A stretch of DNA of 35,842 bases from Candidatus Cybelea sp. (GTDB taxonomy: Bacteria > Vulcanimicrobiota > Vulcanimicrobiia > Vulcanimicrobiales > Vulcanimicrobiaceae), in assembly GCA_036521295.1 (NCBI GenBank), contig DATDIA010000203.1, positions 1 through 35,842 of the forward strand, given 5' to 3'. The notes beneath the pieces were generated by a model. The model was not told the DNA's origin. It ran no database searches and was given only the letters and a program-made list of their open reading frames with translations. The position numbers were made by a program, and so were the translations under genes. Shown piece by piece: positions 7,190 through 35,842 of this stretch; positions within the stretch are counted from its first letter, which is position 1, and each line of letters opens with the position of its first letter.

Positions 7190-7942
7190 ATGCGTGCCAG
7201 ACTTACCGTCGTCGCCCTGATAGGTTCACTCTGGATGGTGCCCAGCATGAGCAGAGCCGATACCGCCGCTGGGCAACTCGTCTACAACTTTACCTACAGT
7301 GCGAATCAGAACGTTCAGTCCCGCGACTCGGTCAACAACGTCGAAGACGTCAACGAATCCGGCAGCCTCGCTGCTGGCAACAACGGAATAAGTCACTACG
7401 GCGGGTCGCTCACGGATAAGGGAACGATGACGGTCAACGTCTTGCGCCGGCAGCCCGATGGAGCGCTGGTCGTCATGATTAGCGAGCAGGGTGAGAACCT
7501 CCGACGAGCCTCGCCGGCCGAGTGCGTCGTCTACGGGAACACGCACGTCATCTGCGACCCCGACAAGACGATCTACACCGAGGAATACACCTTATTGCGT
7601 TTTCTCGGGGGGAACTTCGTCGATCCCACTGCGCTCGACGCGAATCGTCACTGGATCGTTACGCAGGACAGCGGGTTGGATAACGTACATGCGGACTATA
7701 CCATTAACAGCGACGTGAACGGAATGATGCAAATCGGCGAGAAACGCAGCGTCAAGGAGAGTGGAGCGGGGCATTTGACGACCGACGTCGAGACGAAGGT
7801 CGGCTACGACTCCAAACGCTCCGTACCAACATCGGTGGACGAGTACGCGACCCAATACACGGACGGCGGCATCAAGGGCACGTCGAGGACGATCTATCAG
7901 ACCACCCTGAGTCTCGTCTCCGACTCAGTGGCCAAGCAATAG
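7190..7942 (+). CDS. Secreted hypothetical protein
   Basis: 250 aa. Signal peptide MRARLTVVALIGSLWMVPSMSRADT. Composition is Asn/Thr/Asp-rich and beta-like. AGGAG lies upstream of the ATG. I recognise no family. Confidence 0.6.
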   Translation: MRARLTVVALIGSLWMVPSMSRADTAAGQLVYNFTYSANQNVQSRDSVNNVEDVNESGSLAAGNNGISHYGGSLTDKGTMTVNVLRRQPDGALVVMISEQGENLRRASPAECVVYGNTHVICDPDKTIYTEEYTLLRFLGGNFVDPTALDANRHWIVTQDSGLDNVHADYTINSDVNGMMQIGEKRSVKESGAGHLTTDVETKVGYDSKRSVPTSVDEYATQYTDGGIKGTSRTIYQTTLSLVSDSVAKQ

Positions 7943-12019: not shown

Positions 12020-12117
12020 TATCACAGTAATCGGCGCGGTCTCCAGATTTCTTAGCAAGCTCCGCCGTAGTGCGGCGCCAGGAGGCGCCCGGATCGCCTA
12101 GAGAAGGGCTGGCGGGC

Positions 12118-12411
12118 ATGTACCTGCTCGAAGTGCTAAGCGGCCCGCTCGACGGAAAGACCTGGCCCTTCGAGCTCGAGATCACGATTGGGCGCGATGA
12201 CGCGCTGGCAAACGCCTGCCTAGCGCTCGATCGGTACGTTTCGAGAAAGCACGCCCAGTTGCGGATCGAGGCCGGCGCCATACGCCTGGTCGACCTGCGC
12301 AGCCGCAACGGAACGAGACTAGCCGGCAAGCCCGTGGTCGGTGCAGTCCGGCTTCCAGTCGGAGTTCCGTTCATCGTAGGGCGTACCATTCTGCGGGTGA
12401 CGCGCGCGTAA
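12118..12411 (+). CDS. Stand-alone FHA-domain protein
   Basis: 97 aa. FHA signature: ITIGRDDALANACLALDRYVSRKHAQLRIEAGAIRLVDLRSRNGTRLAGKPV. I prefer the ATG at 12118 to the ORF-track start at 12070. Confidence 0.75.
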   Translation: MYLLEVLSGPLDGKTWPFELEITIGRDDALANACLALDRYVSRKHAQLRIEAGAIRLVDLRSRNGTRLAGKPVVGAVRLPVGVPFIVGRTILRVTRA

Positions 12412-17999: not shown

Positions 18000-19183
18000 A
18001 CAAGTTTTGTTTCGTTATTCACCCGCTCTCTTTTGAAGACATCGCGCGCTACGAGCCCGGTGCGAAGGGGAAAGGCGAGGCGATTCTAGGCAAGATCATG
18101 GAGTGGATGCCGCCATATGCGGCAGTGCACGTCACCGGCGTACGGACGCCCGACGGGCGCGAGACGGAAGGCTGGTTCGTTGCGGCCCCCCTCTTGCCTC
18201 AACAGCTCGTCGAATTTCCACGCGAAGAAGTCTATCGTCGCGTCGTCCGCGCCATCGAGATCGGCGCCGAGCTGGGAGCGCAGGTTGCGGGCTTGGGCGC
18301 TTTTACCGCCGTGGTCGGCGATGCCGGCGTGACCATTAATGCTCGCTCGCCGATTCCCGTGACGACCGGCAACTCATTGACGATTGCGGCCGGGGTTGAG
18401 AGCTTGTTTCGCGGCGCCGGCGAGATGGGAATTGACTGGGCCCGCTCCACGGCGGTCGTGATCGGTGCGACGGGCTCGATCGGAAGCGCCTGCGCGCGAA
18501 TGATTGCGCCGAGGGTGGAACGTCTGGTATTGGTGGCACGCAATGAAACTCGCTTACGAAAGTTCCACGATGAAGTTGCCGGCACGCTGACGTGCGCGAG
18601 CGAGTACACGACCGACATTTCGAGCGCCGTACGTCGCGCGCAGCTGATCCTTACTGCGACGACGTCGACGCAAGACGTCATCGAGCCCGCAGAACTTCGC
18701 ACCGGCGCGGTTGTTTGTGAGCTCTCGCTGCCGCACGACGTCGGCCGGCGTGTCGCGCGCGAACGGCCGGACGTCTTAGTGATTGAAGGCGGAAATATGG
18801 TCGTGCCGGGAAATCCGCGCTTCGAGCGCGTGCGCGAACCCGGCACCCAGTTCGATTTGAATCTTCCTGCGCGGACCGCGCTGGCTTGCATGGCCGAAAC
18901 GATGATTCTCGCTCTCGAGGGGCGCTTCGAGCCATTCACGCTTGGGCGGGGAATCCAGCTCGAAAAAGTCATCGAGATTCAATCGCTGGCTGCTCGCTGC
19001 GGATTTACGCTCGCGGACATGCGCGCCTTCGATGCGGCGATTACTCCGCAGAGAATGGCCGCCACGCGCGAAGCGGCAGCCGCCCGCGTCGCCCTGAGCC
19101 TTTCGTCTTCCGATGGAGTCGATCCGCAGCGGAGTCGAAAGACTGCGGATGACACGCTGCGAACAGGCGTCGTCGAAGGATGA
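17996..19183 (+). CDS. Acyl-ACP-reductase-like NAD(P)-binding oxidoreductase (shikimate-DH-like fold)
   Basis: 395 aa. It is collinear with my memory of cyanobacterial acyl-ACP reductase: an N-terminal (F/L)-x-x-I-x-H-(P/L) motif (FCFVIHPLSFED); LGAFTAVVGDAG; TTGNSLT; a Rossmann motif VVIGATGSIGSACARMI; and ACMAETMILALEGRFEPFTLGRG. The GTGA start overlaps the SRPBCC stop. Confidence 0.6.
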   Translation: MNKFCFVIHPLSFEDIARYEPGAKGKGEAILGKIMEWMPPYAAVHVTGVRTPDGRETEGWFVAAPLLPQQLVEFPREEVYRRVVRAIEIGAELGAQVAGLGAFTAVVGDAGVTINARSPIPVTTGNSLTIAAGVESLFRGAGEMGIDWARSTAVVIGATGSIGSACARMIAPRVERLVLVARNETRLRKFHDEVAGTLTCASEYTTDISSAVRRAQLILTATTSTQDVIEPAELRTGAVVCELSLPHDVGRRVARERPDVLVIEGGNMVVPGNPRFERVREPGTQFDLNLPARTALACMAETMILALEGRFEPFTLGRGIQLEKVIEIQSLAARCGFTLADMRAFDAAITPQRMAATREAAAARVALSLSSSDGVDPQRSRKTADDTLRTGVVEG

Positions 19184-20082
19184 AGCGGGTTGTTTCCGTC
19201 TCGCTGGGCTCGAGTAGCCGCGACCACCGCGCGCGAGTGACGTTCATGGGCGAAGAGTTCGATATCTCGCGCGTCGGAACGGACGGCAAGCTCGGTGCCG
19301 CGATTGAGTCGGTGCGCGCGCTCGACGGCCACGTCGATGCAATTGGTTTGGGCGGCATCGACGTTTATCTGTACGCGGGCAGTCATCGCTATGCGCTGCG
19401 CGATGGCTTGCGTTTGCTCGAAGCCGCTACGCTCACACCGGTCGTCGACGGCAGCGGCTTGAAGAACACTCTCGAGCGTAAAGCCGTCCGATTCATGCAG
19501 GAGGAGCTTTCGATCGATTTACGCGGCCGGCGCGTTCTGATGGTAAGCGCCTTGGATCGGTTCGGCATGGCACAGGCGCTCGTCGATGCGGGCGCGGACG
19601 TGCTCTTCGGCGATTTCATCTTTGCGCTCGACAAGGACATGCCGGTTCGCGACCTCCATGAGTTCGAACGGATGGCCGAAAAATATCTTCCCGATGCGTG
19701 CAAGCTGCCGTTTCAATTCTTTTATCCGACCGGAAAGAAACAAGAGAAGCCCCCCGATCCCAAGTATCCGCAGTACTACGAGCAGGCCGAAATTATCGCC
19801 GGCGATTTTCACTTCATGCGGCAATTCATGCCGGAGCGCCTCGACGGCAAGATCGTCTTGACGAACACGGTAACTCAGGCGAATGTCGAAGAGCTCTCGG
19901 CGCGCGGCGTAAAGACGTTGATCACGACGACGCCCGATCTGGCCGGACGCTCGTTCGGAACGAACGTCCTCGAAGCCGCGCTCCTGGCGCTGCTCGGCAA
20001 GGCGTGGAGCGAAGTCGTGCCCGCCGATTACGAGCGCCTGTTGCGAGAGCTTCAACTCAAACCGCGCGTGGTCTCGCTCTGA
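19180..20082 (+). CDS. Conserved protein of the family usually annotated 'quinate 5-dehydrogenase' (function unproven)
   Basis: 300 aa. The N-terminus MKRVVSVSLGSSSRDHRARVTFMGEEFDISRVGTDGKLGAAIESVRALDGHVDAIGLGGIDVYLYAG matches my memory of that family. The ATGA start overlaps the preceding gene. Confidence 0.55.
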   Translation: MKRVVSVSLGSSSRDHRARVTFMGEEFDISRVGTDGKLGAAIESVRALDGHVDAIGLGGIDVYLYAGSHRYALRDGLRLLEAATLTPVVDGSGLKNTLERKAVRFMQEELSIDLRGRRVLMVSALDRFGMAQALVDAGADVLFGDFIFALDKDMPVRDLHEFERMAEKYLPDACKLPFQFFYPTGKKQEKPPDPKYPQYYEQAEIIAGDFHFMRQFMPERLDGKIVLTNTVTQANVEELSARGVKTLITTTPDLAGRSFGTNVLEAALLALLGKAWSEVVPADYERLLRELQLKPRVVSL

Positions 20083-25675: not shown

Positions 25676-26791
25676 CTAATTCAGAGGCGGTTTTCCGCCC
25701 TTATTGCCGCCGTTGTCCGGCGCTTTCGGCGCGGCGCCTTGAGGCCGCGATTTCGATTGTGAGCTGGCGCTCCCACCTTGCGAATGTCCGCCGGATTGCC
25801 CATGCATCGCTTGCGAGTGCATCTGGTTTGGCGGAGGCGATTTGTGCTGCGGATTGGTTGCCGGCGCGTTGTGATGAGGTTGGGTAACCGGCGCCGGGTT
25901 ATGCTTCGGCTGCGACGCAGGCTTCGGTTGTGTGACCGGCTTCGCCTGAGTCGCAGGCTTCGGCTGTGCCTTGGGTTGCGTGACCGGAGCGTTATTCGCG
26001 CCGTTTGAAGTCTTGACGTTCTTCTGCGCGGCTTGCTTATCGGCCGCGGTTACCGGCGCGTAATGTGGAAGCTGCTTCGGATCGTTGTAGGCCTTCTGCG
26101 AAGCCGTAACCGGCGGTCTGCCATGGTTGACGTTCGCATAGAGGTTGCGATCCTGGGCTGCGACACGGGCTTGATTGCGTTGTGCCGTCGTCGGCGGAAT
26201 GGAGTGCTGCCGCGCTGCGATTTGTCCCGAGGTCGGCCTTGCGGATACGCCGCCGCGACCGCCGTTGTAGCTCACGTGACAGTTGTTGCCGCAGTGAACG
26301 CTCTTATTGATGACGCTCTTGTTGACGTAGACGTTGCGCACGACGTTGCGGTTGACGTTCATTACCGCTCCGTTGTACCTGAAGGCGTTGCCGGCCCAGT
26401 AGCCACCGACGAATCCGGCACCGAAGTAGCCGAAGCCGTAGTTGATGCCACCGTAGAACCCGACGCTCGGGCCCCAGTAGCCGGTGTTCCACGCGTAGGC
26501 ACCGTTATAGCCGGCGCCCCAGTAACCCGGGGTCCAATAGACGCCGACTGAGGGTGGCGCCACCCACGTCCCCGGAACCCAGTAGTAGCCGCCGGGTCCC
26601 CAGCCCCAGTATCCAGGGGTCCACTGGTAGTTGGGATAGGGGGCTACCGGCTGTGAATAGACCGGAAGCGGCGGCGGGGGCGCGCCGACGCTAAACCCGA
26701 CTCCGACGCTTAACTGCGCGGGCGCCGTTAGCGGGAGAGCTGCCATAAAAACCGTTAGGATAATTGCGGAGAGCGATCTTGTGATTCGCAC
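25676..26791 (-). CDS. Secreted YXWGXW/WxxGxW-repeat protein with a low-complexity Pro/Gln/Lys-rich tail
   Basis: 371 aa. GTG start with GGAGGA upstream. Signal peptide: MRITRSLSAIILTVFMAALPLTAPA. Aromatic-Gly repeats: YQWTPGYWGWGPGGYYWVPGTWV, VYWTPGYWGAG, NTGYWGP. The C-terminus has PVTQPK-like repeats and a His/Gln/Ser-rich end. Confidence 0.75.
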   Translation of the reverse strand: MRITRSLSAIILTVFMAALPLTAPAQLSVGVGFSVGAPPPPLPVYSQPVAPYPNYQWTPGYWGWGPGGYYWVPGTWVAPPSVGVYWTPGYWGAGYNGAYAWNTGYWGPSVGFYGGINYGFGYFGAGFVGGYWAGNAFRYNGAVMNVNRNVVRNVYVNKSVINKSVHCGNNCHVSYNGGRGGVSARPTSGQIAARQHSIPPTTAQRNQARVAAQDRNLYANVNHGRPPVTASQKAYNDPKQLPHYAPVTAADKQAAQKNVKTSNGANNAPVTQPKAQPKPATQAKPVTQPKPASQPKHNPAPVTQPHHNAPATNPQHKSPPPNQMHSQAMHGQSGGHSQGGSASSQSKSRPQGAAPKAPDNGGNKGGKPPLN

Positions 26792-26984: not shown

Positions 26985-27203
26985 ATGTTCGATGTCGGCG
27001 AGTCTCTGCGTGATGCCTTTACCACGGCTCGCGCGCGTTTACACGACGGGCAAAGGTCGGTAGCCCTAGCCAACTCGGGCATCGGGATCGGCCGCTCCGC
27101 CGATGCGGCGATGGCCCAGACGGCGCAAGCGGCAATCTTTACCGAAGCGCTTCTCGCCGCGGAACGAGCACGCTTTGAGGAGATAAAGGCGGTCACAAAA
27201 TGA
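26985..27203 (+). CDS. Small FlgB-position protein (possible minimal proximal rod protein)
   Basis: 72 aa. It is the first gene of the operon, and its stop overlaps the flgC start (ATGA at 27200-27203). AGGA lies upstream. The MFD start is FlgB-like, but I cannot see the rod N-terminal ANN/TPG motif. The call is mainly positional. Confidence 0.4.
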   Translation: MFDVGESLRDAFTTARARLHDGQRSVALANSGIGIGRSADAAMAQTAQAAIFTEALLAAERARFEEIKAVTK

Positions 27204-27526
27204 ACATCGATATCCTCGATGCGGCCGCCAGCGGGATGGACGCGCAGCGCGCGGCCCTCGACGTGGCGGCCCGTAACGTTGCCGCCGCAGAAGCCGCGGG
27301 CCCGAACGCTGACTACGCACGGATGATTCCCATCTTTCGAATCGACGCCAACGACGATTCGCGCGTCGAATTTACCGGTACGCGCACCGAGGCCGGGACG
27401 AACGTCGACATTCTCACCGAGATGATTGCCGTGATGAATGCCTCGCGTGCGTACGAGTCTGACGCCTCGATCTTCGAGGTCGGCAAGAGACTAGCCGAAA
27501 AAACGATCGACTTGGAGCGGTTGTGA
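27200..27526 (+). CDS. flgC: Flagellar basal-body rod protein FlgC (short form)
   Basis: 108 aa. The N-terminus ILDAAASGMDAQRAALDVAARNVAAAEA resembles IFDIAGSALSAQ..RLNV.A.NLANA. The C-terminus TNVDILTEMIAVMNASRAYESDASIFEVGKRLAEKTIDL matches the rod C-terminal heptad motif. Confidence 0.8.
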   Translation: MNIDILDAAASGMDAQRAALDVAARNVAAAEAAGPNADYARMIPIFRIDANDDSRVEFTGTRTEAGTNVDILTEMIAVMNASRAYESDASIFEVGKRLAEKTIDLERL

Positions 27527-27789
27527 GGGTCGAGCCGCTTATCCCCGACGCTCCGGCGCCCCCGCCGCAACCCAGCGGTGACGCAGCGGCATTTGCGCGC
27601 GCGCTCGATGCACTCGGCGGCGTGCTTGCCGGTGCAGCGCAGGCCGAAGATAATTTCGCATACGGTAGAGGCACGTTGCAAGATGCGATCTACGAACGCG
27701 CGCAGGCGGACGTGGCACTCTCCGTGGCAACGGCGACGGCGCAGCGCATCGCGCAGGCCGCGCAATCCGTGCTTAACATGCAAGTGTAG
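27523..27789 (+). CDS. fliE: Flagellar hook-basal body complex protein FliE
   Basis: 88 aa. FARALDALGG...AEDNFAYGRGTLQDAIYERAQADVALSVATATAQRIAQAAQSVLNMQV, including the characteristic C-terminal MQV. The GTGA start overlaps the flgC stop. Confidence 0.8.
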   Translation: MRVEPLIPDAPAPPPQPSGDAAAFARALDALGGVLAGAAQAEDNFAYGRGTLQDAIYERAQADVALSVATATAQRIAQAAQSVLNMQV

Positions 27790-27791
27790 CC

Positions 27792-29264
27792 ATGAATGGC
27801 GTTGCCCCGCTGCTGACTCGGTGGAATACCTTACCGAGAGCGCCTCGCCTCGTGGTGAGCGCGGCAGTGCTCGCCTTAGTGACCATCGCAGCGGCAGCGG
27901 CAATCGTCGCGCATCCAGTTCGTACGCCGCTCTTTGCCGCTTCACTCCATCCCGAGCAGCTTGCCGAGGTCGAAGAGCGGCTTGCCGCGTGGAACGTTCC
28001 CTTCACGCCTACTGCCGAGAACGTGATCGTAGATACGAGGCGCCGCAACGATCTCTTGCTGCGCCTCTCGCTCGCCGGCGTTCCACATCTGCATCTCGTA
28101 AATAGCGCAGAGGCGCTGGAAAGCATCGGCGTCCTGACCCCGCAAGCCGTCATCGAAGCGCAGACGCGAGCGGGTCTCGGCGGCGACATCGAAGCGGGGT
28201 TGCGCAGTATCGACGGCGTGGATGACGTACGAGTTATCGTTGCGCCGGCAAAGGCACCGGAATTCGCCGACGAAACCACGCACGACGCCTCTGCCTCAGT
28301 GCGGCTGGAGCTTCGCGGCGGCGCGCGGCTTTCGCGCGAAGCGATTGCCGGCATCCGCGCATTTGTCGCGGCAAGCGTCCCCGAACTCCTGCCGGCACGG
28401 GTGACGATTCTCGACGATCGCGGTGTCGCGTTGGGCGACGACACTGCCGGTGCCGACGAGGCCGCCGACCTCCAGCGCTCGCTGCAGTCCGCACTCGATT
28501 CCGCTTTCGGTGACGAAGCGACGATCGTCCGGGTTCGCGCGGAATACGAAGTTGGGCAAACCTCCGAGCACGACGTGCGCCGCGCCCCGATCGCTGTCGC
28601 GGCGATCAGGCGCTTGCGGCGCAGCGAGAGCTACGACGGAGGCGGCAAACGCTATCGCAGAGTCGAAGAAGGCGATGATCGCGGCAGCCAAACGCACGAG
28701 TCGCTCGCGCAAACCCCGGCGGGCGCGCTCAAGCGCCTTTCGACGGCGATCTTCGTCGATCAAAGCCGCGCGCTCGATGTAGCGAAGGTTCGCGAACTCG
28801 CGGGCGCTACGCTCGGCTACGATTCGCGCCGTGGTGACACGCTCGCCGTCGAGGCCGTGGACTTTCACCGAGAGCTCCCGGTACGTAAGGACCCCTGGTG
28901 GCTGCTCTACGGCGCAATCGTGCCGCTCGCACCGGCGCTCATTTTGGCGATCGGGCTCGTCGCTTGCGTGCGGATTGCCGTACCCTCGGTCGCCGCGCTG
29001 GTGCAATCGTTCATCGAGCGCGTCGTCGTCGAGCGCGCCTCGAAAGCCGCCGCGGGTTTTCCGCCGGCGCGTGTGCGCAGTATGCTCGAGCAAGAACCGC
29101 CACATGCCGCGGCGGCAATCATCAGCGCGCTGCCGGCTGCGACCGCCGCGGCAGTCCTGGACCTCTATCCGCCACACGAACGCGAGGCGATCGTTCGCCG
29201 AATGCAGCGGTCTGTGGCACCCCTGCTCTCTGACGCGCACGAGTTGTTGCGTCGTCATGTCTGA
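27792..29264 (+). CDS. fliF: Flagellar MS-ring protein FliF with a FliG-N-like C-terminal cytoplasmic extension
   Basis: 490 aa. N-terminal TM: LVVSAAVLALVTIAAAAAIV. YscJ/FliF region: LAEVEERLAAWNVPFT...IVDTRRRNDLLLRLSLAGVP...DIEAGLRSIDGVDDVRVIVA. Second TM: WWLLYGAIVPLAPALILAIGLVACV. The roughly 105-aa cytoplasmic tail contains HAAAAIISALPAATAAAVLDLYPPHEREAIVRRM. Confidence 0.85.
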   Translation: MNGVAPLLTRWNTLPRAPRLVVSAAVLALVTIAAAAAIVAHPVRTPLFAASLHPEQLAEVEERLAAWNVPFTPTAENVIVDTRRRNDLLLRLSLAGVPHLHLVNSAEALESIGVLTPQAVIEAQTRAGLGGDIEAGLRSIDGVDDVRVIVAPAKAPEFADETTHDASASVRLELRGGARLSREAIAGIRAFVAASVPELLPARVTILDDRGVALGDDTAGADEAADLQRSLQSALDSAFGDEATIVRVRAEYEVGQTSEHDVRRAPIAVAAIRRLRRSESYDGGGKRYRRVEEGDDRGSQTHESLAQTPAGALKRLSTAIFVDQSRALDVAKVRELAGATLGYDSRRGDTLAVEAVDFHRELPVRKDPWWLLYGAIVPLAPALILAIGLVACVRIAVPSVAALVQSFIERVVVERASKAAAGFPPARVRSMLEQEPPHAAAAIISALPAATAAAVLDLYPPHEREAIVRRMQRSVAPLLSDAHELLRRHV

Positions 29265-29727
29265 CAACTTCGTTCCGCTCGCCTCATTCTTGCGTCCCGT
29301 CGCGCAGAAACCGGTGGTGGAACCGCCTCCGCCGGCAGAGGGGCCGACTGCGGACCCGTGCGATGACTATAACGAAACGCTTCGCGCTGCGCGGCGTTTT
29401 CGTGCAGGGCTCAGCGATGCACTCGAAACCGCCGTCGAGCAGATGTTGCCAAAGATCGCGAAGGAGGTGCTCGCACGCGAGCTGCAGCTCGCCGATGCCG
29501 ACGTTGCCGCGATTCTCTCGGCCGCGCTCGATCGGTTCGCCGGCGATACGGTGCTTTGCGTTCGCGCGCACCCTCGCGACTGGGCTGCACTGGCCGGTTT
29601 TGAGCTCGAACGGGTTGCCGATGCTTCGCTACAGCCGGGGGATGTTCGTCTGGACCTTCGTAGTGGCACGATCGATTTGACGCTCGCCGCGCGCCTCGAT
29701 GCAGCTCTGGCGGCGTGTTCGGCGTGA
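29257..29727 (+). CDS. fliH: FliH/SctL-like export ATPase regulator (short)
   Basis: 156 aa from the ATG at 29257, overlapping the fliF stop by 8 nt. FliH-like C-terminal half: MLPKIAKEVLARELQLADADVAAILSAALDRF...VLCVRAHPRDWAAL...VADASLQPGDVRLDLRSGTIDLTLAARLDAAL. It sits immediately upstream of fliI. Confidence 0.65.
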   Translation: MSDNFVPLASFLRPVAQKPVVEPPPPAEGPTADPCDDYNETLRAARRFRAGLSDALETAVEQMLPKIAKEVLARELQLADADVAAILSAALDRFAGDTVLCVRAHPRDWAALAGFELERVADASLQPGDVRLDLRSGTIDLTLAARLDAALAACSA

Positions 29728-30770
29728 ACGCTTCGCAGAGGCTCGCACTCGGCGCTTGCGCGCTCGGACGCGCAATCGACGCGCACGGTTCGCCACTCGA
29801 CTGTGGGCCGCTTTTGCAAGGGCGTAACGTCACATTGGACCTGCGTGCTCCCCGACCCAGCGATCGGGTGCCGATTGCGACCCCGCTGCCGACCGGAATA
29901 CGCGTCGTCGATGGGTTGCTCACCATCGGTCGCGGCGCCCGCATCGGAATTTTCGGCGCACCCGGGGCAGGCAAGACCACCCTGATCGAAGCGGTCGTCG
30001 CGGGCTGCGCTGCCGACGCAATCGTCATCGCACTCGTCGGTGAACGTGGGCGAGAAGCGCAATGCTGGATTGCGCGGCGCGACGATCGGACGACGGTCAT
30101 TTGCGCCACCAGCGATCGGCCGCCGCAGGAGCGGCTTCTCGCGGCACGAGTTGCCGTGGTGCATGCCGGTGCGCTTCGCGAACGCGGATTGCACGTGCTG
30201 CTCGTCATCGATAGCTTGGCACGCTTTGCGTACGCATCGCGCGAGATCGCCGTGGCCGCCGGCGAGAGCGTCGGGCGAGGCGGGTATCCACCGAGCGTCT
30301 TCGCTCATCTGGCTCGACTCGTCGAAGTTTCCGGGGCGCTCCAGAATGGCTCGATCACATTGATCGCGAGCGTCATAAACGATGGGGACGACCGCGATCC
30401 GGTCAGCGAGGGTGCGCGCTCGATTCTGGACGGGCACATCGCGCTTTCGACGCGCCTCGCCGAAGCAGGGCGATTTCCGGCCGTGGACGTACCGGCGAGT
30501 ACGAGCCGAACGATGGAAGCGGTCGTTAATCACTCTCATCTGAGCGCCGCGCGCAAGGTAGCGCGAGCTCTGGCCCTGCTCGACCGTATCGAAGACGCCC
30601 GCGCGCTCGGCATAGATCCGGCCGATCGCGCGGCGCGTATCGCCATTGCCGCCGAGACCCGTCTCGAAGCCTTCCTACGTCAAGGACGCAGCGCCTCCGA
30701 CTACGAGGCCACCTTGTCACAGTTGGCGCAACTCGCAATTCTCTTGGAAGGCGACGGTGGAGATCGTTAG
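29715..30770 (+). CDS. fliI: Flagellar/T3SS export ATPase FliI lacking the N-terminal domain
   Basis: 351 aa. Walker A: GAPGAGKTT. LVGERGREA is present. Walker B: HVLLVIDSLARFA. PPSVF and GSITLIASV...DDRDPVSEGARSILDGHIALS are also present. Alignment from memory to Salmonella FliI starts near residue 100. The upstream sequence is occupied by the fliH-like gene. Confidence 0.88.
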   Translation: MFGVNASQRLALGACALGRAIDAHGSPLDCGPLLQGRNVTLDLRAPRPSDRVPIATPLPTGIRVVDGLLTIGRGARIGIFGAPGAGKTTLIEAVVAGCAADAIVIALVGERGREAQCWIARRDDRTTVICATSDRPPQERLLAARVAVVHAGALRERGLHVLLVIDSLARFAYASREIAVAAGESVGRGGYPPSVFAHLARLVEVSGALQNGSITLIASVINDGDDRDPVSEGARSILDGHIALSTRLAEAGRFPAVDVPASTSRTMEAVVNHSHLSAARKVARALALLDRIEDARALGIDPADRAARIAIAAETRLEAFLRQGRSASDYEATLSQLAQLAILLEGDGGDR

Positions 30771-31326
30771 CAATCTCGGCGCGCTTATGCGGCGGATCGA
30801 ACAAATCGCGCAAGGTCCGCGACTTGACGGCCCAGAGTTCGACGACGCCGTCACGGTTGCGAGCCTCACTGCGCACTCGGCAATCGATTTGGGTTCAGCC
30901 GATTCGCGCTTGGCTATCGATCGCTACGTAAGCACAAGCGCGCAGACCCTCGGCATCGATCCTGCCCTGATCGAGGCGATCATTGCAAACGAATCGGGAT
31001 TCGATCCAAAGGCGACCTCTCGCGCCGGCGCTCGCGGTCTCATGCAACTCATGCCGCAGACGGCCGCAGAGTTCGGTGTTACCGATCCGTACGACGCCGC
31101 GCAGAACATACGAGGCGGTACCCGATACTTTCGCACGCTGCTCGATCGGTTCGGTGATGTCGAGCTGGCCGTGGCTGCATACAACGCGGGGCCGGGTGCA
31201 GTCGAACGTTTCGGCGGCGTGCCGCCCTACGCGGAGACACGCAGCTACGTACGTAAAGTCTTGGCGCATTACCGGGAACTGCGTTCGCGCGAGCGCGTAG
31301 TTCTCAACTCGGCAAACTTGCGATGA
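30757..31326 (+). CDS. SLT-domain lytic transglycosylase embedded in the flagellar operon
   Basis: 189 aa from the GTG at 30757 (GGAAGG upstream), overlapping the fliI stop. The alternative start is ATG 30787. SLT motifs: IIANESGFDPKATSRAGARGLMQLMPQTA, AAYNAGPGAV. Confidence 0.85.
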   Translation: MEIVSNLGALMRRIEQIAQGPRLDGPEFDDAVTVASLTAHSAIDLGSADSRLAIDRYVSTSAQTLGIDPALIEAIIANESGFDPKATSRAGARGLMQLMPQTAAEFGVTDPYDAAQNIRGGTRYFRTLLDRFGDVELAVAAYNAGPGAVERFGGVPPYAETRSYVRKVLAHYRELRSRERVVLNSANLR

Positions 31327-31360
31327 GTGACCGATCACACGCTTCTGCGACGATCGTGCG

Positions 31361-31918
31361 ATGATGACGCAGCAGCTCGAAGTTAGTATTCTCGCGGCGC
31401 CGTTGGCAGCGATCGACCGCCGAACACTGTCAGAGGCATGGTATTCGGCGTTGCGCCTGGTGTGCCAACCTCGCCAAACTTTAGCGATTGCACCTCTTGC
31501 GCGATCGCCAGTCGCGCAGCGCCTTCGCGCGTACACACAAAACGTCCAGGAGCGATCCTGGCGCGACCGCGTCGAGATGGGCCGTTTTCACACCTTGCCT
31601 CCCAAACCGAGCACGATGTGCGGCGACGAAGTAAGGGCAAACATCTCAGGCCGGCGCTGCGCGCTCGCGCGCCGGATCGAGCGAGCGTTCGCCCAACCAA
31701 ACTCGCATGCGAAGCGTGCGACATTTTCGATGGGACGCGGAAACGCACGCGTGCATATCATCCTTCAAACGAAAGGAGAATGCACGGCACTGCTCGCGAT
31801 ATGCCGCCCGGAGTTGCGTCTCGTCGTCGCGCGCGCTCTGGCACAAGCTCGTCTCGCGCTAGCGGCGCGCGGCATCGGCATCGAACTGCGCGGGCCGGCA
31901 GTAGCTGAATGTTCCTGA
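31361..31918 (+). CDS. Hypothetical protein with a FliK/SctP-like (hook-length / substrate-switch) C-terminal pattern
   Basis: 185 aa. The C-terminal 60 aa (ARVHIILQTKGECTALLAICRPELRLVVARALAQARLALAARGIGIEL) fit the Flg_hook pattern: beta strand, G, beta strand, then a helix ending L..L...G. It occupies the fliK position of the fla/che order. This call is inference only. Confidence 0.4.
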   Translation: MMTQQLEVSILAAPLAAIDRRTLSEAWYSALRLVCQPRQTLAIAPLARSPVAQRLRAYTQNVQERSWRDRVEMGRFHTLPPKPSTMCGDEVRANISGRRCALARRIERAFAQPNSHAKRATFSMGRGNARVHIILQTKGECTALLAICRPELRLVVARALAQARLALAARGIGIELRGPAVAECS

Positions 31919-32631
31919 GTACAAGCCTGAGCGCCGCACTCGATCGCATCGCCGAGCGAGCCGCCGACGTAAGGCGGGCGTACACACCGGCTGCGGTTCC
32001 GCAGGAAGACGACGTCGCAGCCCCCACAACGATCTCAGACTTTACCCTCGATCCGCTTGCCGTGAGCGCGCCGGACGGCGTCTACTTCGCCACGAACGAC
32101 GATCGGGGAAGAACGACGTACACGCGCGACGGCTCCTTTGCGCTTCGTGGCGGCAAGCTCGTCGATGCTGATGGCCGCCCCGTCTTGGGCGAGCGCAACC
32201 AGTCCGGGATACTCGGCGAGCTTGCCGTCGATCCGGTGGACGAAGTACTGGGACGAATCCACGACGCCGGCATCGAACGCGACGGCAGCTTCGCGTACCG
32301 TCGCGACGTTTTGGATCCACGCAGCGGAAGGCGAGAATCGCAACGAGTCGTTGTTGGACGGATTGCTCTTGCGCGTTTTCCCGCTGGGACGAGACTCGAG
32401 ACGAGTGATGGGAGTCATTGCATCGCCCCTGCGGGTGTCGTCGCGGAGAATGGTTTTGCGACGGAGCGAGGCTTTGCACCGCTGGTGCCGATGCATCGCG
32501 AGCGCAGCCGAGTCGACGTCGATGAAAGTCTCATCCGGCTCAAAGAGGCGTATCTTGCCTTTGACGCGCTGCAGGCAGCCGAGGCCGCCCGAGCGCACCT
32601 CGGCAAGACCGCGATGGATCTCTTGAAATGA
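31909..32631 (+). CDS. Flagellar rod/hook-family protein (FlgE/FlgF/FlgG-like), divergent
   Basis: 240 aa. YTRDGSFALRGGKLVDADGRPVLG matches the conserved rod/hook core (YTR.G.F......L....G..vlG). GRIALARFP is present. The C-terminus SRVDVDESLIRLKEAYLAFDALQAAEAARAHLGKTAMDL matches the SNVD...E...y.a motif. The N-terminal ANxxTxGFK motif is degenerate. Confidence 0.7.
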   Translation: MFLSTSLSAALDRIAERAADVRRAYTPAAVPQEDDVAAPTTISDFTLDPLAVSAPDGVYFATNDDRGRTTYTRDGSFALRGGKLVDADGRPVLGERNQSGILGELAVDPVDEVLGRIHDAGIERDGSFAYRRDVLDPRSGRRESQRVVVGRIALARFPAGTRLETSDGSHCIAPAGVVAENGFATERGFAPLVPMHRERSRVDVDESLIRLKEAYLAFDALQAAEAARAHLGKTAMDLLK

Positions 32632-33422
32632 AAGCACTTGGTTTCGTCTTGCCGTTCAAGGACGGCTCTGAGGCCACGGGAACAAAGCGCGTTCGGCGTG
32701 CCCTCTTTGAGGCGCGCTCCTCGCTGCCCATTAGCGCCGCTTGCGTCGTTGCAAACGGTATACGCGAGACGTTGAGTTCGTTGCTGCGCGGATCCGTTGC
32801 GGTGCGCCTCTTCGAGCCGAGGATCCCAGGGCCGCACGCGTGGTCGGCAATTCTGCGCGATGCGCGACTCTATCGGGTGCGAGGAAACGTTGCGGATGCG
32901 GCCCTTGTCCTGCGAGCGTCCGACGCGGTTGCCCTCGCCGCCGCGCTTTTCGGAGAATCGTCCGGCGCCGTCGAGCGTGCGCTTTCTCCGATTGAATGCG
33001 ACGTCTTGGATCGCATGATCAACGCAATCGCTGCGAACCTCGGTGCGGTCTGCGGAGCGCGCGAAGGCTATCCCGTCGAGCGCGTTGTGGCGGTCGACGG
33101 TCTCGTGACCTACTTCGAGCTCCTGATTGAGGAGCCGGTTTCGTTTCGAATCGGCATCGCGCTCTCGCGCGAACCTGCGTCCGAAACCCGCGGCTCTCTC
33201 GAAGCCAGGCACCTTGCGCAAGTCAGACTCACCGCTCTCGCCACCCTCAACCTAGGCAAGATAGACGCAGCGGCCGTTTCGCGACTCGTCGTTGGTGCGA
33301 CCATTCCGGTAGAGCCCGCAGAATTGCATCGATGTAGCCTTATGGCGCACGGACGCAGACTCGCTCGCGGCAGCTGCGGGGTCCGCGATGGACGCTATGC
33401 ATTCTATGCCGACGCGACGTGA
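32628..33422 (+). CDS. fliM: FliM/SctQ-like switch/sorting-platform protein (short)
   Basis: 264 aa. The middle region has LSPIECDVLDRMINAIAANL. A C-terminal SpoA-like segment is present: LTALATLNLGKIDAAAVSRLVVGATIPVEPAELHRCSLMAHGRRLARGSCGVRDGRYAF. The ATGA start overlaps the preceding gene. It lies immediately upstream of fliN. Confidence 0.6.
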   Translation: MKALGFVLPFKDGSEATGTKRVRRALFEARSSLPISAACVVANGIRETLSSLLRGSVAVRLFEPRIPGPHAWSAILRDARLYRVRGNVADAALVLRASDAVALAAALFGESSGAVERALSPIECDVLDRMINAIAANLGAVCGAREGYPVERVVAVDGLVTYFELLIEEPVSFRIGIALSREPASETRGSLEARHLAQVRLTALATLNLGKIDAAAVSRLVVGATIPVEPAELHRCSLMAHGRRLARGSCGVRDGRYAFYADAT

Positions 33423-33431
33423 ACGCCTACG

Positions 33432-33710
33432 ATGGCGATGAGCTCGAAAGAATCGGCGGAGTTCGAGAATATTGGCTTGCTCATGCACGTGCCGCTGGAT
33501 CTCACGGTCGAGTTGGGAAGCGCTCAGCTTTCGGTGGCCGAGGTATTGAAGCTCGGCACGGGTTCGATCGTCGAACTCGATCGCCCCGTAAATCATCCCG
33601 TCGACCTGCTCGTTAACCGTAGACTGATTGCGCGCGGCGAGATCGTCGCAGTTGCGGAGAGCTTTGCGTTTCGCGTTACCGAGCTGCTTCCGCTCCAGAC
33701 AAGCTCGTAA
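33432..33710 (+). CDS. fliN: Flagellar motor switch protein FliN (SpoA domain only)
   Basis: 92 aa. LLMHVPLDLTVELGSAQLSVAEVLKLGTGSIVELDRPVNHPVDLLVNRRLIARGEIVAVAESFAFRVTEL is a clear SpoA/FliN signature. Confidence 0.88.
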   Translation: MAMSSKESAEFENIGLLMHVPLDLTVELGSAQLSVAEVLKLGTGSIVELDRPVNHPVDLLVNRRLIARGEIVAVAESFAFRVTELLPLQTSS

Positions 33711-33714
33711 CTCT

Positions 33715-34374
33715 ATGCCCACCGATTTCTTCGCGGGCACGGTCGGCCGGCACGCAACGGTGCCACTCGATCTCCTCGTGGCGCTGACGATGCTCTCGGT
33801 CGTGCCGCTTCTGCTGGTCATGTGCACGTCGTTCGTACGAATCGTCGTCGTGCTCTCACTCGTGCGTTCGGCAATCGGCGCCTCAGCGCTTCCGCCCAAC
33901 GCCGTGCTCACGGGGCTCGCACTCGTACTGACTTTGGTCGTCATGGCGCCTACCGCGCAGCGAATCAGACACGACGCTATCGATCCCTATTCGCGAGGCG
34001 CAATTTCCCCTTCGCAGGCGATTCGACGAGCAATCGCGCCGCTTCGCTCGTTCATGCTCCGCCAGACGCGCGCGGCGGATGTGGCGCTATTCGAGCGAGT
34101 CGCACGGCGCGCCCCCGAGCCGGGCCAGCGCGCGCCCATTACCGTCGTGATTCCCGCTTTCGTCGTGGGTGAGCTGCGCAGCGGCTTCGCTATCGGATTT
34201 GCGCTGTATCTGCCGTTCGTCGCCATCGACTTGGCGGTTGCAGCCATGCTGATGGGGCTTGGCATGATGATGCTCAGCCCACCCGTCGTCTCGTTGCCGG
34301 TGAAGCTGCTGCTCTTCGTGATGGTCGACGGCTGGGCGATGCTTTGCGGAGGCGTTGCAGCAAGCTTCCGATAA
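33715..34374 (+). CDS. fliP: Flagellar export-gate protein FliP
   Basis: 219 aa from the ATG at 33715. TSFVRIVVVLSLVRSAIGASALPPNAVLTGLALVLTLVVMAP, AFVVGELRSGFAIGFALYLPFVAIDLAVAAMLMGLGMMMLSP and LLLFVMVDGW are present. Confidence 0.92.
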   Translation: MPTDFFAGTVGRHATVPLDLLVALTMLSVVPLLLVMCTSFVRIVVVLSLVRSAIGASALPPNAVLTGLALVLTLVVMAPTAQRIRHDAIDPYSRGAISPSQAIRRAIAPLRSFMLRQTRAADVALFERVARRAPEPGQRAPITVVIPAFVVGELRSGFAIGFALYLPFVAIDLAVAAMLMGLGMMMLSPPVVSLPVKLLLFVMVDGWAMLCGGVAASFR

Positions 34375-34383
34375 CTCAGATAT

Positions 34384-35295
34384 ATGCGCATCGGAGATGC
34401 CATCGCGACACAGCGGCCGTTTTTCTCGTTCGAGTTCTTCCCACCGAAGGACGACGAGGGTTCCCGCCGCTTGTTTGCCGCAATCGCGGCGTTGCAACCG
34501 CTGCGGCCGGCCTTCGTTTCCATCACCTACGGTGCCGGCGGCTCGACGCGCGCCCGTACGGTTGCGCTCGCTAAAGAAATTCAGCATCAGATCGGTCTGA
34601 CGGTGGTTGCGCACGTCACGTGCATCGGCGCGGATCGGGGCGAGTTGCGAGAACTCTTCGACGACTTGGCGAGGGCCGGCATCGAGAACGTGCTTGCATT
34701 GCGAGGCGACGCCCCGCCGGGTGCGTCGTTCTCACCGACGCCCGGAGGCTTTGCCCACGCCAGCGAGCTGATCGCCATGTTGCGGCGAAACTACGACTTC
34801 TGCATCGGAGCGGCGTGCTATCCCGAAAAGCATCCCGAAGCGGCGACCTTCGAAGACGACCTCCTCCATCTCAAGCTCAAAGCCGAAGCGGGCGCGGATT
34901 TTCTCGTCTCGCAGCTTTTTTTCGACAACGCACACTTCTTCGAATTCGAACGCCGCGCCCGAATCGCCGGTATCGAGCTCCCGATTCTCCCCGGCCTGAT
35001 GCCGATTACAAACTTTGCCCAGATCAAGCGGTTCGTCGCCATGTGCGGCGCGAGCATTCCACCGAAGCTCCTCGTGGAATTGGAGGCGCGCAAGGGCGAC
35101 GATAAGGCGGTCGAAGATCTCGGCGTCGCATATGCGTCGATGCAGGCTCTCGGACTGGTGCAGGGAGGCCTGCCCGGGATTCACTTTTACACGTTGAACC
35201 GCTCGCCCGCGACGCGTGCTATTGTCTCGTCGCTCTTGGCGGCAAGTGCCTGGCGTCCCGCATTGCGAACACGCAGTGCCATAACAACTCGGTAA
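34384..35295 (+). CDS. metF: 5,10-methylenetetrahydrofolate reductase
   Basis: 303 aa. FSFEFFPPK, SITYGAGGSTR, HVTCIG, VLALRGD and DFLVSQLFFD are present. It starts 9 nt after the fliP stop, on the same strand. Confidence 0.9.
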   Translation: MRIGDAIATQRPFFSFEFFPPKDDEGSRRLFAAIAALQPLRPAFVSITYGAGGSTRARTVALAKEIQHQIGLTVVAHVTCIGADRGELRELFDDLARAGIENVLALRGDAPPGASFSPTPGGFAHASELIAMLRRNYDFCIGAACYPEKHPEAATFEDDLLHLKLKAEAGADFLVSQLFFDNAHFFEFERRARIAGIELPILPGLMPITNFAQIKRFVAMCGASIPPKLLVELEARKGDDKAVEDLGVAYASMQALGLVQGGLPGIHFYTLNRSPATRAIVSSLLAASAWRPALRTRSAITTR

Positions 35296-35326
35296 CGTCG
35301 CCGTAACGGCGCGCGGGTAGCGTTGA

Positions 35327-35599
35327 GTGGTGGAGATCCTCGACGGATTGCTTCACGACGCGCTCCTTACCACCGCAACGATCGCCTTGCCGATGCTCGG
35401 CGTCGCAGCGCTTGTCGGTACTGCGATTGCCGTCGTCCAAGCGGCGACGCAGGTCCAAGAACAGACCCTGACGCTGCTTCCCAAGATCGTCGCTATTGGA
35501 TTGATGATCGCGTTGTTCGGCGGCCCCGCTATGCACTTGCTCGCTGGACTCTTCGATCGCGCGCTGGCTGCGATTCCTGCGATCGAGACGGGATGGTAA
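35327..35599 (+). CDS. fliQ: Flagellar export-gate protein FliQ
   Basis: 90 aa. IALPMLGVAALVGTAIAVVQAATQVQEQTLTLLPKIVAIGL is present. The GTG start is at 35327 or 35330. Confidence 0.9.
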   Translation: MVEILDGLLHDALLTTATIALPMLGVAALVGTAIAVVQAATQVQEQTLTLLPKIVAIGLMIALFGGPAMHLLAGLFDRALAAIPAIETGW

Positions 35600-35842
35600 C
35601 CGGTCTGCTCGCCTTTGCCCGTTGCGCCGGCTTCGTCTTTCGCGCGCCGGGATTCTCGCATCCGAGCGTGCCGTCTCCACTACGAGCCGGCCTGGCCGTC
35701 GCGCTTTCGATCGCAATGGCCCCGAACGCTACGCGGGCACCGCACAATGTCGACGTGGTGATGCTCGTCATTGCAATCCTGGGGGAATTCTTGCTCGGCA
35801 GCGCAATCGGCATGGCCGCCTCGCTGATCTACGACGCAGCCC
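35593..35842 (+). CDS. fliR: Flagellar export-gate protein FliR, 3' end cut by the window edge
   Basis: I translated this by hand, as it is not in the ORF track: MVTGLLAFARCAGFVFRAPGFSHPSVPSPLRAGLAVALSIAMAP...LGEFLLGSAIGMAASLIYDAA. The ATG at 35593 overlaps the fliQ stop (ATGGTAA). Confidence 0.8.
   Translation, partial: MVTGLLAFARCAGFVFRAPGFSHPSVPSPLRAGLAVALSIAMAPNATRAPHNVDVVMLVIAILGEFLLGSAIGMAASLIYDAA

Follow-up and report, generated by a model that had tools for sequence, protein, structure and literature searches.

How far can a flagellar gene set be reduced and still be kept as a working machine? The question is raised by a gene cluster at the end of a chromosomal stretch of 35,842 nucleotides from Candidatus Cybelea sp. 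(assembly GCA_036521295.1, contig DATDIA010000203.1, positions 1 to 35,842 of the forward strand), which we call the window and which has a G+C content of about 63%. The original prediction, made from these letters, had left the choice between a very reduced flagellum and a flagellum-derived export machine. In our preferred reading, to which we give a probability of roughly 60%, the cluster encodes a type III export apparatus that has a basal body, derives from a flagellum, is functional without rotating and is vertically inherited in Eremiobacterota. It is carried by an export gate that is complete once related genomes are followed past the window edge, by a FliF protein that appears to end in a piece of FliG, and by the conservation of the cluster under purifying selection in about 80 species.

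Fifteen open reading frames (ORFs), all on the + strand, tightly coupled and each with an intact frame, span positions 26985-35842. This coupling had been predicted, and every ORF and overlap described was found in the sequence: start and stop codons overlap as ATGA at 27200 and 32628, as GTGA at 27523 and as ATGGTAA at 35593, and the start codon of fliH (ATG 29257) lies 8 nt before the fliF stop at 29264. Two extra overlaps occur between fliH and fliI (29715 versus 29727) and between the gene for a protein of 185 amino acids (aa) and the rod gene (31909 versus 31918). Families were assigned to the window ORFs with Pfam and NCBIfam, which back FlgC, FliE, FliF, FliH, FliI, SLT, a protein with the D1 domain of FlgE/F/G, FliN, FliP, MTHFR (metF), FliQ and FliR. 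The features of the cluster, each with the basis of its assignment, are as follows.

26985..27203, + strand, 72-aa protein in the flgB position (gene position only)
27200..27526, + strand, FlgC, 108 aa (Pfam Flg_bbr_C)
27523..27789, + strand, FliE, 88 aa (Pfam FliE)
27792..29264, + strand, FliF, 490 aa, with a FliG middle-domain-like tail (Pfam YscJ_FliF, YscJ_FliF_C, FliG_M)
29257..29727, + strand, FliH, 156 aa (Pfam FliH)
29715..30770, + strand, FliI/SctN-type ATPase, 351 aa (Pfam ATP-synt_ab, T3SS_ATPase_C)
30784..31326, + strand, SLT lytic transglycosylase, 180 aa (Pfam SLT)
31361..31918, + strand, 185-aa protein in the fliK position (gene position only)
31909..32631, + strand, FlgE/FlgF/FlgG-family axial protein, 240 aa (Pfam D1 domain, PDB profile)
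32628..33422, + strand, FliM, 264 aa (predicted structure)
33432..33710, + strand, FliN, 92 aa, SpoA domain only (Pfam FliMN_C)
33715..34374, + strand, FliP, 219 aa (Pfam FliP)
34384..35295, + strand, MetF (Pfam MTHFR)
35327..35599, + strand, FliQ, 90 aa (Pfam Bac_export_3)
35593..35842, + strand, 5' part of FliR, cut by the window end (Pfam Bac_export_1)

In related genomes the cluster runs past the window edge, with the rest of fliR followed by flhB and flhA, and has 17 genes in total (72aa-flgC-fliE-fliF-fliH-fliI-SLT-185aa-rod-fliM-fliN-fliP-metF-fliQ-fliR-flhB-flhA). The order is colinear with flgB-flgC-fliE-fliF-fliG-fliH-fliI...fliM-fliN...fliPQR-flhBA, and on this point the earlier description stands; only the end of the cluster has to be moved beyond the window. 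The unusually short products that had been pointed out are real, as the lengths of 72, 108, 88, 490, 156, 351, 185, 240, 264 and 92 aa are kept in homologues. The SLT and FliP ORFs are likewise present, with starts that probably lie further inside them. For SLT the most likely start is ATG 30784, giving 180 aa and matching orthologues of 177-188 aa, and not the 226 aa of the longest ORF; for FliP, comparison with orthologues favours ATG 33715 and thus 219 aa, not 248 aa.

Missing from the locus are a fliG gene, a stator, a hook cap, junction proteins, a filament, L/P rings, fliJ, fliL, fliO, flhF and flhG. No MotA or MotB was found in the 35.8-kb window or in about 8 kb downstream in relatives, and FlgD, FlgK/L, FliC and FliD are absent from the locus in about 80 genomes, the remainder of the genome not having been searched in either case. 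Neither the 27 kb upstream in the window nor the approximately 8 kb downstream in relatives contains any other flagellar gene.

The FliF tail and the switch proteins

The cluster had been called FliG-less. There is indeed no separate fliG gene in the locus, and neither FliG_N nor FliG_C has a Pfam match in the window, but a FliG middle-domain remnant seems to be fused to the C-terminus of FliF. Residues 422-472 of FliF match Pfam FliG_M with 29.5 bits (cut-off 25), and the segment concerned (aa ~420-475, nt ~29055-29215) takes the place of the usual short FliG_N-binding tail, which is not present. We then examined a profile of the last ~96 residues of FliF from 43 species, in which the tail is 80% conserved per column. 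When this profile was compared with the PDB, the top four matches were all FliG middle-domain chains, with a weak E of about 0.1. The invariant E41-P42...R76 of the tail aligned with the EHPQ...R motif of FliG, which forms the FliM-binding surface of its middle domain. Together, these matches suggest that FliF carries a fused FliG middle-domain remnant of about 55 residues with an EHPQR-like FliM-binding motif. Because the fragment is fused to FliF, the N-terminal domain of FliG would be unnecessary.

The 264-aa protein shows a weak C-terminal SpoA domain by sequence, and it had been labelled FliM-like. Its structure was modelled with AlphaFold2 on 80 homologues (mean predicted local distance difference test score, pLDDT, of 76). 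The top Foldseek matches of the model were full-length Salmonella FliM in cryo-electron microscopy structures of the cytoplasmic (C) ring, with an E of 1.5e-11 and a probability of 1.0. The model also matched crystal structures of the FliM middle domain, including FliG-FliM complexes, at a template modelling (TM) score of about 0.6. The predicted fold thus bears out the label and identifies the protein as a FliM that has a middle domain and a C-terminal SpoA domain. When the consensus of the FliM family was read by eye, its N-terminus showed no peptide motif for CheY binding. FliN is clear by sequence (Pfam FliMN_C, 83.9 bits; NCBIfam fliN, 86.7 bits against a cut-off of 84). In public records, FliM of this family is mostly annotated as 'hypothetical protein'.

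Export gate, ATPase and axial proteins

The five-protein export gate (FliP/SctR, FliQ/SctS, FliR/SctT, FlhB/SctU and FlhA/SctV) is complete, with three members in the window and FlhB and FlhA directly downstream in relatives. FliP scores 241.8 bits with Pfam and 227 with NCBIfam fliP, above its cut-off of 217 (SctR, 190), and FliQ scores 71.5 bits with Pfam Bac_export_3 and 61 with NCBIfam FliQ (SctS, 48). In related loci FliR has about 238 aa, FlhB about 337 aa and FlhA about 686 aa. The NPxH autocleavage site of FlhB is retained, N251, P252 and H254 being invariant in four aligned orthologues; the flhB gene of the window organism itself lies beyond the window end.

An ATPase and a SpoA platform are present as well, consisting of the catalytic and C-terminal domains of FliI, FliH, FliM and FliN, without FliJ/SctO. 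FliH was recognized by Pfam with 35.9 bits, and its NCBIfam FliH and SctL matches are weak. FliI aligns from its residue 3 onward to Salmonella FliI from residue 85/103, and it is therefore without the N-terminal domain that binds FliH and stabilizes the ring. No gap between fliH and fliI could hold this domain. More divergent relatives of this FliI have 407-430 aa and keep it.

Is this gate flagellar or of the injectisome type? The side was judged by NCBIfam bit scores against the flagellar and the injectisome model, together with gene content and order.

FlhA: flagellar 587 bits, injectisome 472 bits
FliP: flagellar 227 bits, injectisome 190 bits
FliQ: flagellar 61 bits, injectisome 48 bits
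FliR: flagellar 82 bits, injectisome 73 bits
FliF: flagellar 56 bits, injectisome 25 bits, and so FliF-like, not SctJ-like
FliN: flagellar 87 bits, injectisome 64 bits
FlhB: flagellar 190 bits, injectisome 221 bits (SctU)
FliI: flagellar 313 bits, injectisome 333 bits (SctN), both under the cut-offs

Six proteins thus score on the flagellar side and two, FlhB and FliI, slightly on the Sct side, and only FliP and FliN reach the NCBIfam equivalog cut-offs. Gene content (FliE, FlgC, an FlgE-family protein and full-length FliF) and gene order would place the system, which is very divergent, on the flagellar side.

FliI was searched against 1.8 billion cluster representatives. A tight group of about 16 clusters scored above 280 bits, with full-length members mostly of 407-430 aa, and those checked by name or gene context all trace to the Eremiobacterota phylum. 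Below this group, scores fall to about 250 bits and the matches, which come from many phyla, are generic FliI/SctN proteins; the nearest outside clusters have uninformative names. The closest match from another phylum is a FliI encoded within a canonical flgB-flgC-fliE-fliF-fliG-fliH-fliI...fliL-fliM-fliN-cheY cluster, which fits descent from a normal flagellum. The public names of these ATPases clash: SctN, EscN/YscN/HrcN-type, FliI/YscN-type, flagellum-specific ATP synthase and hypothetical protein all occur (clusters P0363, P0368 and P0369), and some are named SctN by NCBI's pipeline.

The axial proteins are few and small. FlgC matches Pfam Flg_bbr_C with 27.5 bits (cut-off 23) and NCBIfam FlgC with 52.7 bits, under its cut-off; FliE reaches 24.2 bits with both Pfam (cut-off 22.4) and NCBIfam fliE. 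The 240-aa protein had been described as a rod or hook protein, and its profile does match FlgE (5e-11), FlgG (5e-6) and FlgF (5e-3) in the PDB, with the C-terminal D1/D0 region aligned. On these profile matches it belongs to the FlgE/F/G family of axial proteins, with D0 and D1 only, and its gene stands where the hook gene would be in the operon. It is the single FlgE/F/G paralogue of the locus, compared with at least three in a flagellum. The rod set consists of FliF, FliE, FlgC and this one FlgE/F/G-family protein, and FlgB is not demonstrable in it.

The transglycosylase (Pfam SLT, 97 bits) has as its best NCBIfam match the spirochaete flagellar-assembly lytic transglycosylase BB0259 (101 bits). 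A hydropathy scan of the window protein revealed no hydrophobic stretch that could serve as signal peptide, and none was evident in the N-termini read from four other loci. Since the signal peptide is missing, we infer that the enzyme is exported through the type III gate, in the manner of FlgJ, which takes this route. By contrast, a co-located Asp-protease-domain protein of divergent lineages, described below, does have a signal peptide.

Two labels of the original prediction were not upheld. The 72-aa protein, called FlgB-like, has no match in Pfam, NCBIfam or the PDB and no relatives detectable outside the phylum. It was compared by hhalign with the FlgC profile of the cluster, without significance (E 0.039, probability 1.3%), and with FliE, likewise. 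The protein is nevertheless a conserved one (51-97% identity across 47 loci; ratio of non-synonymous to synonymous substitutions, dN/dS, of ~0.1), and its deeper-lineage orthologue contains a rod-like 'VIANVPGGGSR' segment. From gene position and this motif it may be a remnant of FlgB.

The 185-aa protein, called FliK-like, matched nothing in Pfam or NCBIfam as a single sequence or in the PDB as a profile, and in a per-member Pfam scan one of 58 family members gave a weak Flg_hook match. Its 603 homologues all look like 'hypothetical proteins' of Eremiobacterota, and its dN/dS is 0.24-0.42. In the AlphaFold2 model, a conserved N-terminus of about 34 aa is followed by a linker (33-96) that is disordered and variable, and by an alpha-beta-beta-beta-alpha domain (100-172) predicted with confidence. 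A Foldseek search with this C-terminal domain gave no match below E 0.4, so that FliK is backed neither by sequence nor by fold. It is the predicted layout that resembles a FliK/SctP ruler. In OY969421.1 (L004 13556-14839; the same genome as L054) the genes for the 185-aa and FlgE/F/G-like proteins form one in-frame ORF of 427 aa, the sole case among 55 loci. Long-read indel errors are its likely origin, because the fliQ-fliR region of that genome also looks frameshifted.

Distribution, selection and lineage variants

The hosts belong to Candidatus Eremiobacterota (Vulcanimicrobiota), near Candidatus Cybelea, which taxonomy places in the family Vulcanimicrobiaceae. They are free-living soil bacteria with genomes of 2-3.6 Mb. 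FliF has more than 1000 homologues; among the best 120 clusters nearly all are 488-491 aa long with 66-93% identity, and those with named records come from Candidatus Cybelea, Baltobacter, Tumulicola or Eremiobacteraeota. For synteny, one genome per species was scanned with an FlhB profile, which yielded 80 loci, nearly all labelled Eremiobacterota or Vulcanimicrobiota. In tblastn comparisons the gene order was identical in essentially all loci that were long enough, at the same site between rplM-rpsI and secDF. The check on gene-order conservation that had been proposed thus came out positive in about 80 species-level genomes.

Sixteen machine genes are common to these approximately 80 species, at amino-acid identities of 33-99%. 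Selection was measured as pairwise Nei-Gojobori dN/dS between the window and five relatives. Values ranged from 0.03 to 0.42 across every gene of the cluster, similar to those of the neighbouring housekeeping genes. Conservation across the phylum and purifying selection indicate that the cluster is maintained and vertically inherited and is not a relic, in agreement with the earlier view that it is no pseudogene remnant.

A gene for a metabolic enzyme has become part of the cluster. MetF (Pfam MTHFR, 296 bits; dN/dS 0.06-0.09) lies between fliP and fliQ in every scanned locus that covers this junction, and because of this position a gene of core metabolism may share a transcript with the distal genes of the export gate. 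A promoter and terminator scan of the cluster gave counts no better than chance. In a deeper lineage (GCA_040961365.1 and GCA_004298665.1; L086/L087) the same reduced set occupies the same site, with fliP and fliQ adjacent and no metF. There, FlgC has 133 aa and FliI 425 aa, and an extra gene after SLT encodes a protein of about 546 aa that carries a signal peptide as well as an Asp_protease_2 domain. The reduced set is therefore older than the split of the metF-bearing clade from the deeper lineage. As the deeper lineage keeps the longer FlgC, the longer FliI and the protease and is without metF, the lineage of the window has changed further: it gained metF, about 75 residues disappeared from the N-terminus of FliI, FlgC became shorter and the protease gene dropped out. 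Only divergent lineages have retained the N-terminal domain of FliI and the protease gene.

The Asp_protease_2 (retropepsin-like) gene of divergent Eremiobacterota encodes about 520-550 aa with an N-terminal signal peptide and lies between fliI/SLT and the 185-aa gene (L086 11792-13432; L066 3124-4770; L067 855-2417). Its product may serve the machine as a processing protease or as an accessory part in the periplasm.

Some lineages have unrelated insertions in the cluster (a glycosyltransferase, an AraC-type regulator) or a split cluster, and two species representatives have internal deletions. In the closest relative (L059, MFD03399.bin.1.137; 93.8% nucleotide identity) a clean deletion of 1,217 bp at L059 6414-6424, corresponding to window 31546-32761, leaves only the first third of the 185-aa gene, takes away the FlgE/F/G-like gene entirely and cuts ~45 codons from the start of fliM. 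In the metagenome-assembled genome palsa_1485 (L080, 7682-8028) the first ~39 codons of flgC are fused to the last ~100 codons of fliP, so that about 6.5 kb of the cluster (flgC to fliP) is missing and metF-fliQ-fliR-flhB-flhA remain. These deletions are either real losses or assembly artefacts.

A proposed non-rotary export machine, its rivals and known relatives

How could such a machine work? In the model that we propose, FliPQR, FlhB and FlhA would be seated in the FliF ring. The fused FliG_M fragments would recruit FliM and FliN straight onto this membrane and supramembrane (MS) ring, since the remnant in FliF keeps the FliM-binding motif. The C-terminal domain of FliG is the part that interacts with the stator and generates torque. 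Because it is missing, the ring could not be driven by stators, and the C ring would instead be a static cytoplasmic sorting platform, as in injectisomes. FliH and FliI would feed substrates to the gate. Besides a lytic transglycosylase that acts on peptidoglycan, the locus encodes four axial proteins, all of them small: FliE, FlgC, the 72-aa protein and the FlgE/F/G-family protein. The gate would export the axial proteins, which may form a short rod- or needle-like tube through the peptidoglycan, while the transglycosylase, exported through the gate as FlgJ is, would open the peptidoglycan for it. Autocleavage of FlhB and the ruler-like 185-aa protein might then switch export to other cargo, and such a switch would imply a second class of substrates. 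In the end the machine might deliver proteins to the periplasm or across the outer membrane, or its role might be purely structural.

Taken as a whole, this picture is more tentative than the general reading. It is conceivable, at somewhat less than even odds, that Eremiobacterota harbour an independent living lineage of non-motile, flagellum-derived type III secretion systems (T3SSs), in which the C ring is anchored on the MS ring by a fused FliG remnant, a needle-like tube is built from a single FlgE/F/G-type protein, and the system's own transglycosylase and post-switch cargo are exported.

In favour of a non-rotary export apparatus we count the losses within its proteins, namely the N-terminal domain of FliI, a visible CheY-binding peptide of FliM and part of the length of FliH. 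Several points weigh against it. The scores behind the FliG_M assignment of the FliF tail (29.5 bits; E ~0.1 in the PDB) are weak, and the roles given to the 72-aa and 185-aa proteins are guesses from gene position. An ATPase without its ring-forming N-terminal domain and without FliJ may function poorly. No outer-membrane component is encoded in the locus. If the deletions in L059 and L080 are real, the machine is dispensable in some lineages. Moreover, the absence of fliG, motAB, flgD/E/K/L, fliC/D and flgH/I holds for the locus and its flanks, not genome-wide, and copies may lie elsewhere. Finally, the evidence from the cultured Vulcanimicrobium alpinum, given below, comes from a relative and not from the organism of the window.

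Among the rival explanations, a functional structural or signalling platform survives best. The machine would then, for instance, mark the cell pole, regulate the motility driven by type IV pili or tether the envelope, and the gate would serve only the assembly of the machine itself. This would agree with a locus that encodes no candidate effector, chaperone, translocon or outer-membrane pore, and whose only clear substrates would be its own axial proteins and transglycosylase. Retained flagellar genes have also reportedly been linked to other traits in the non-flagellated Lysobacter enzymogenes (PMC9927559). The platform is nonetheless unlikely in our view, as a full FlhA with its cytoplasmic domain, the autocleavage site of FlhB and the FliH-FliI module, all strongly constrained, are seemingly more than the self-assembly of a very short rod needs.

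The cluster might also be one divergent operon of an ordinary flagellar regulon, in which the genes for FliG, MotAB, hook, junction, filament and rings lie at other sites and the cells have working flagella. Flagellar genes are often spread over several loci, the gene order here is canonical, the absences were established for the locus and its flanks, and chemotaxis genes occur in the family (cheA, cheW, cheR and mcp in V. alpinum). However, the FliG_M-like end of FliF, in place of the usual FliG_N-binding tail, does not fit an ordinary flagellum, nor do a FliM without a visible CheY-binding peptide, a FliI without its N-terminal domain, or the lack of any flagellar gene 27 kb upstream and 8 kb downstream, in the window or in about 80 genomes. 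V. alpinum, the sole cultured member of the Vulcanimicrobiaceae, has an outer membrane and moves by means of type IV pili; electron microscopy showed no flagella, it "lacks a flagellin gene", and its gene table lists fliN besides the four chemotaxis genes (PMC9758169). We therefore hold an ordinary flagellum to be improbable. A decaying, inert relic of an ancestral flagellum, to which the many missing or truncated components, the deletions in L059 and L080 and the genes inserted into the cluster (metF, glycosyltransferase, AraC-type regulator) might point, is very improbable given that all frames of the window are intact, that the 16 machine genes, including those of the two orphan proteins, are kept under purifying selection at the identities given above, and that the reduced set predates the split of the deeper lineage.

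The non-rotary export apparatus shares with the bacterial flagellum its gene order, export gate, FliF with both Pfam domains, FliE, FlgC, an FlgE/F/G-family protein, FliM, FliN, FliH and FliI. It differs in that the locus has no separate FliG, no FliG N- or C-terminal domains, and no MotAB, FlgD, FlgK/L, FliC/D, FlgH/I, FliJ, FliL, FliO or CheY, that FliI is without its N-terminal domain, and that FlgC, FliH and FliF are shortened. Its likeness to the injectisome would be one of function: a static sorting platform of SpoA proteins, an ATPase, an export gate, a dedicated lytic transglycosylase and perhaps a ruler and an SctU/FlhB switch. Unlike in injectisomes, the axial proteins of the locus are of the flagellar rod family and the ring protein is FliF-like, and no SctC secretin, SctD, SctK, SctF needle, SctI inner rod, tip or translocon is encoded in the locus.

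Buchnera aphidicola builds flagellin-less hook-basal bodies; it is non-motile, has kept the export apparatus and basal body without a filament, and has been proposed to use them as a protein exporter. As an obligate endosymbiont, Buchnera is undergoing genome reduction, and it still has FliG as well as hook, distal rod and L/P rings. Compared to Buchnera, the set of Eremiobacterota is smaller, its hosts are free-living soil bacteria and its FliG would be a fused remnant.

A second comparison is offered by the non-flagellar 'Myxo' T3SS of Myxococcales, which has a T3SS core without motility genes, secretin, needle or filament, is conserved in free-living bacteria and has been argued to be a non-motile translocation machine (Abby and Rocha 2012, PMC3459982). 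The Myxo system is without FlgB, FlgC, FliE and other rod proteins and has some features specific to non-flagellar T3SSs (PMC3459982); it also has no FliG and branches with the non-flagellar T3SSs. The locus studied here, on the other hand, keeps FliE, FlgC, an FlgE/F/G-family protein and full-length FliF, and most of its core proteins score as flagellar.

Engineered fusions of full-length FliF and FliG at 1:1 in Salmonella and Vibrio reportedly still allow rings to assemble, so that fusion is structurally tolerated (PMC10941966, PMC6079021). These fusions keep all three FliG domains, whereas the putative fusion in the locus is natural and comprises a middle-domain fragment only. L. enzymogenes offers a parallel, being free-living and non-flagellated, moving with type IV pili and retaining part of a flagellar gene set. 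It differs in its phylum and in a different, less reduced gene set, and it is not reported to have a FliF-FliG_M fusion (PMC9927559). The earlier statement that no system of this composition has been described agrees with our full-text literature searches, in which no account turned up either of this system or of FliF-FliG_M fusions in nature; on flagellar genes in Eremiobacterota only the statement on V. alpinum was found.

If the more tentative picture of an independent lineage is true, the cluster would parallel, in nature, the hypothetical step with which the change from flagellum to injectisome began, in which motility is lost and secretion kept; its carriers would be soil bacteria that live freely, neither pathogens nor symbionts. 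A motility-stripped stage of this kind forms part of the route that has been proposed to lead from flagella to injectisomes (Abby and Rocha 2012), and the cluster would be a conserved natural example of it in abundant free-living soil bacteria. Of the analogues known so far, that of Buchnera is an endosymbiont relic and that of Myxococcales is already on the side of the injectisome. The cluster would also define a smaller parts list for a rod-bearing type III machine, without FliJ, FliO and the N- and C-terminal domains of FliG and, in one clade, without the N-terminal domain of the ATPase. The natural FliF-FliG_M fusion would provide a direct test of the minimal part of FliG needed to attach FliM and FliN to the MS ring, and the cultured relative V. 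alpinum makes experiments feasible. Trait predictors that count flagellar genes could be misled by the cluster, for which annotation names are already inconsistent (flagellar, SctN, hypothetical).

On both sides the cluster is flanked by housekeeping genes, as identified with Pfam. Upstream lie sucC, sucD, a gene for a large TonB-dependent-receptor-like protein, lexA, panC, coaBC, coaX, dus, greA, lysS, truA, rplM and rpsI; in related genomes flhA is followed by genes for a phosphoesterase and a solute symporter, secD, secF and a helicase gene. An ORF at 12070-12411 (113 aa), with a Pfam match to FHA/Yop-YscD_cpl, the latter a model of the cytoplasmic domain of the T3SS ring protein YscD, was considered as a remnant of SctD and rejected as probably a generic FHA domain among pantothenate genes; it adjoins panC, 15 kb from the cluster.

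Directly upstream of the cluster and divergent from it, a 371-aa protein is encoded on the - strand (25676-26791). It has an N-terminal hydrophobic segment and a weak match to a WXXGXW repeat. Most Cybelea-type genomes keep it in this position, at 44-95% identity, and the deeper lineage lacks it. Three ORFs of 250-300 aa (6323-7162, 7190-7942 and 19180-20082) are on the same strand as their neighbours and have no Pfam match. The last of them is kept in related loci as a gene of about 301 aa upstream of greA.

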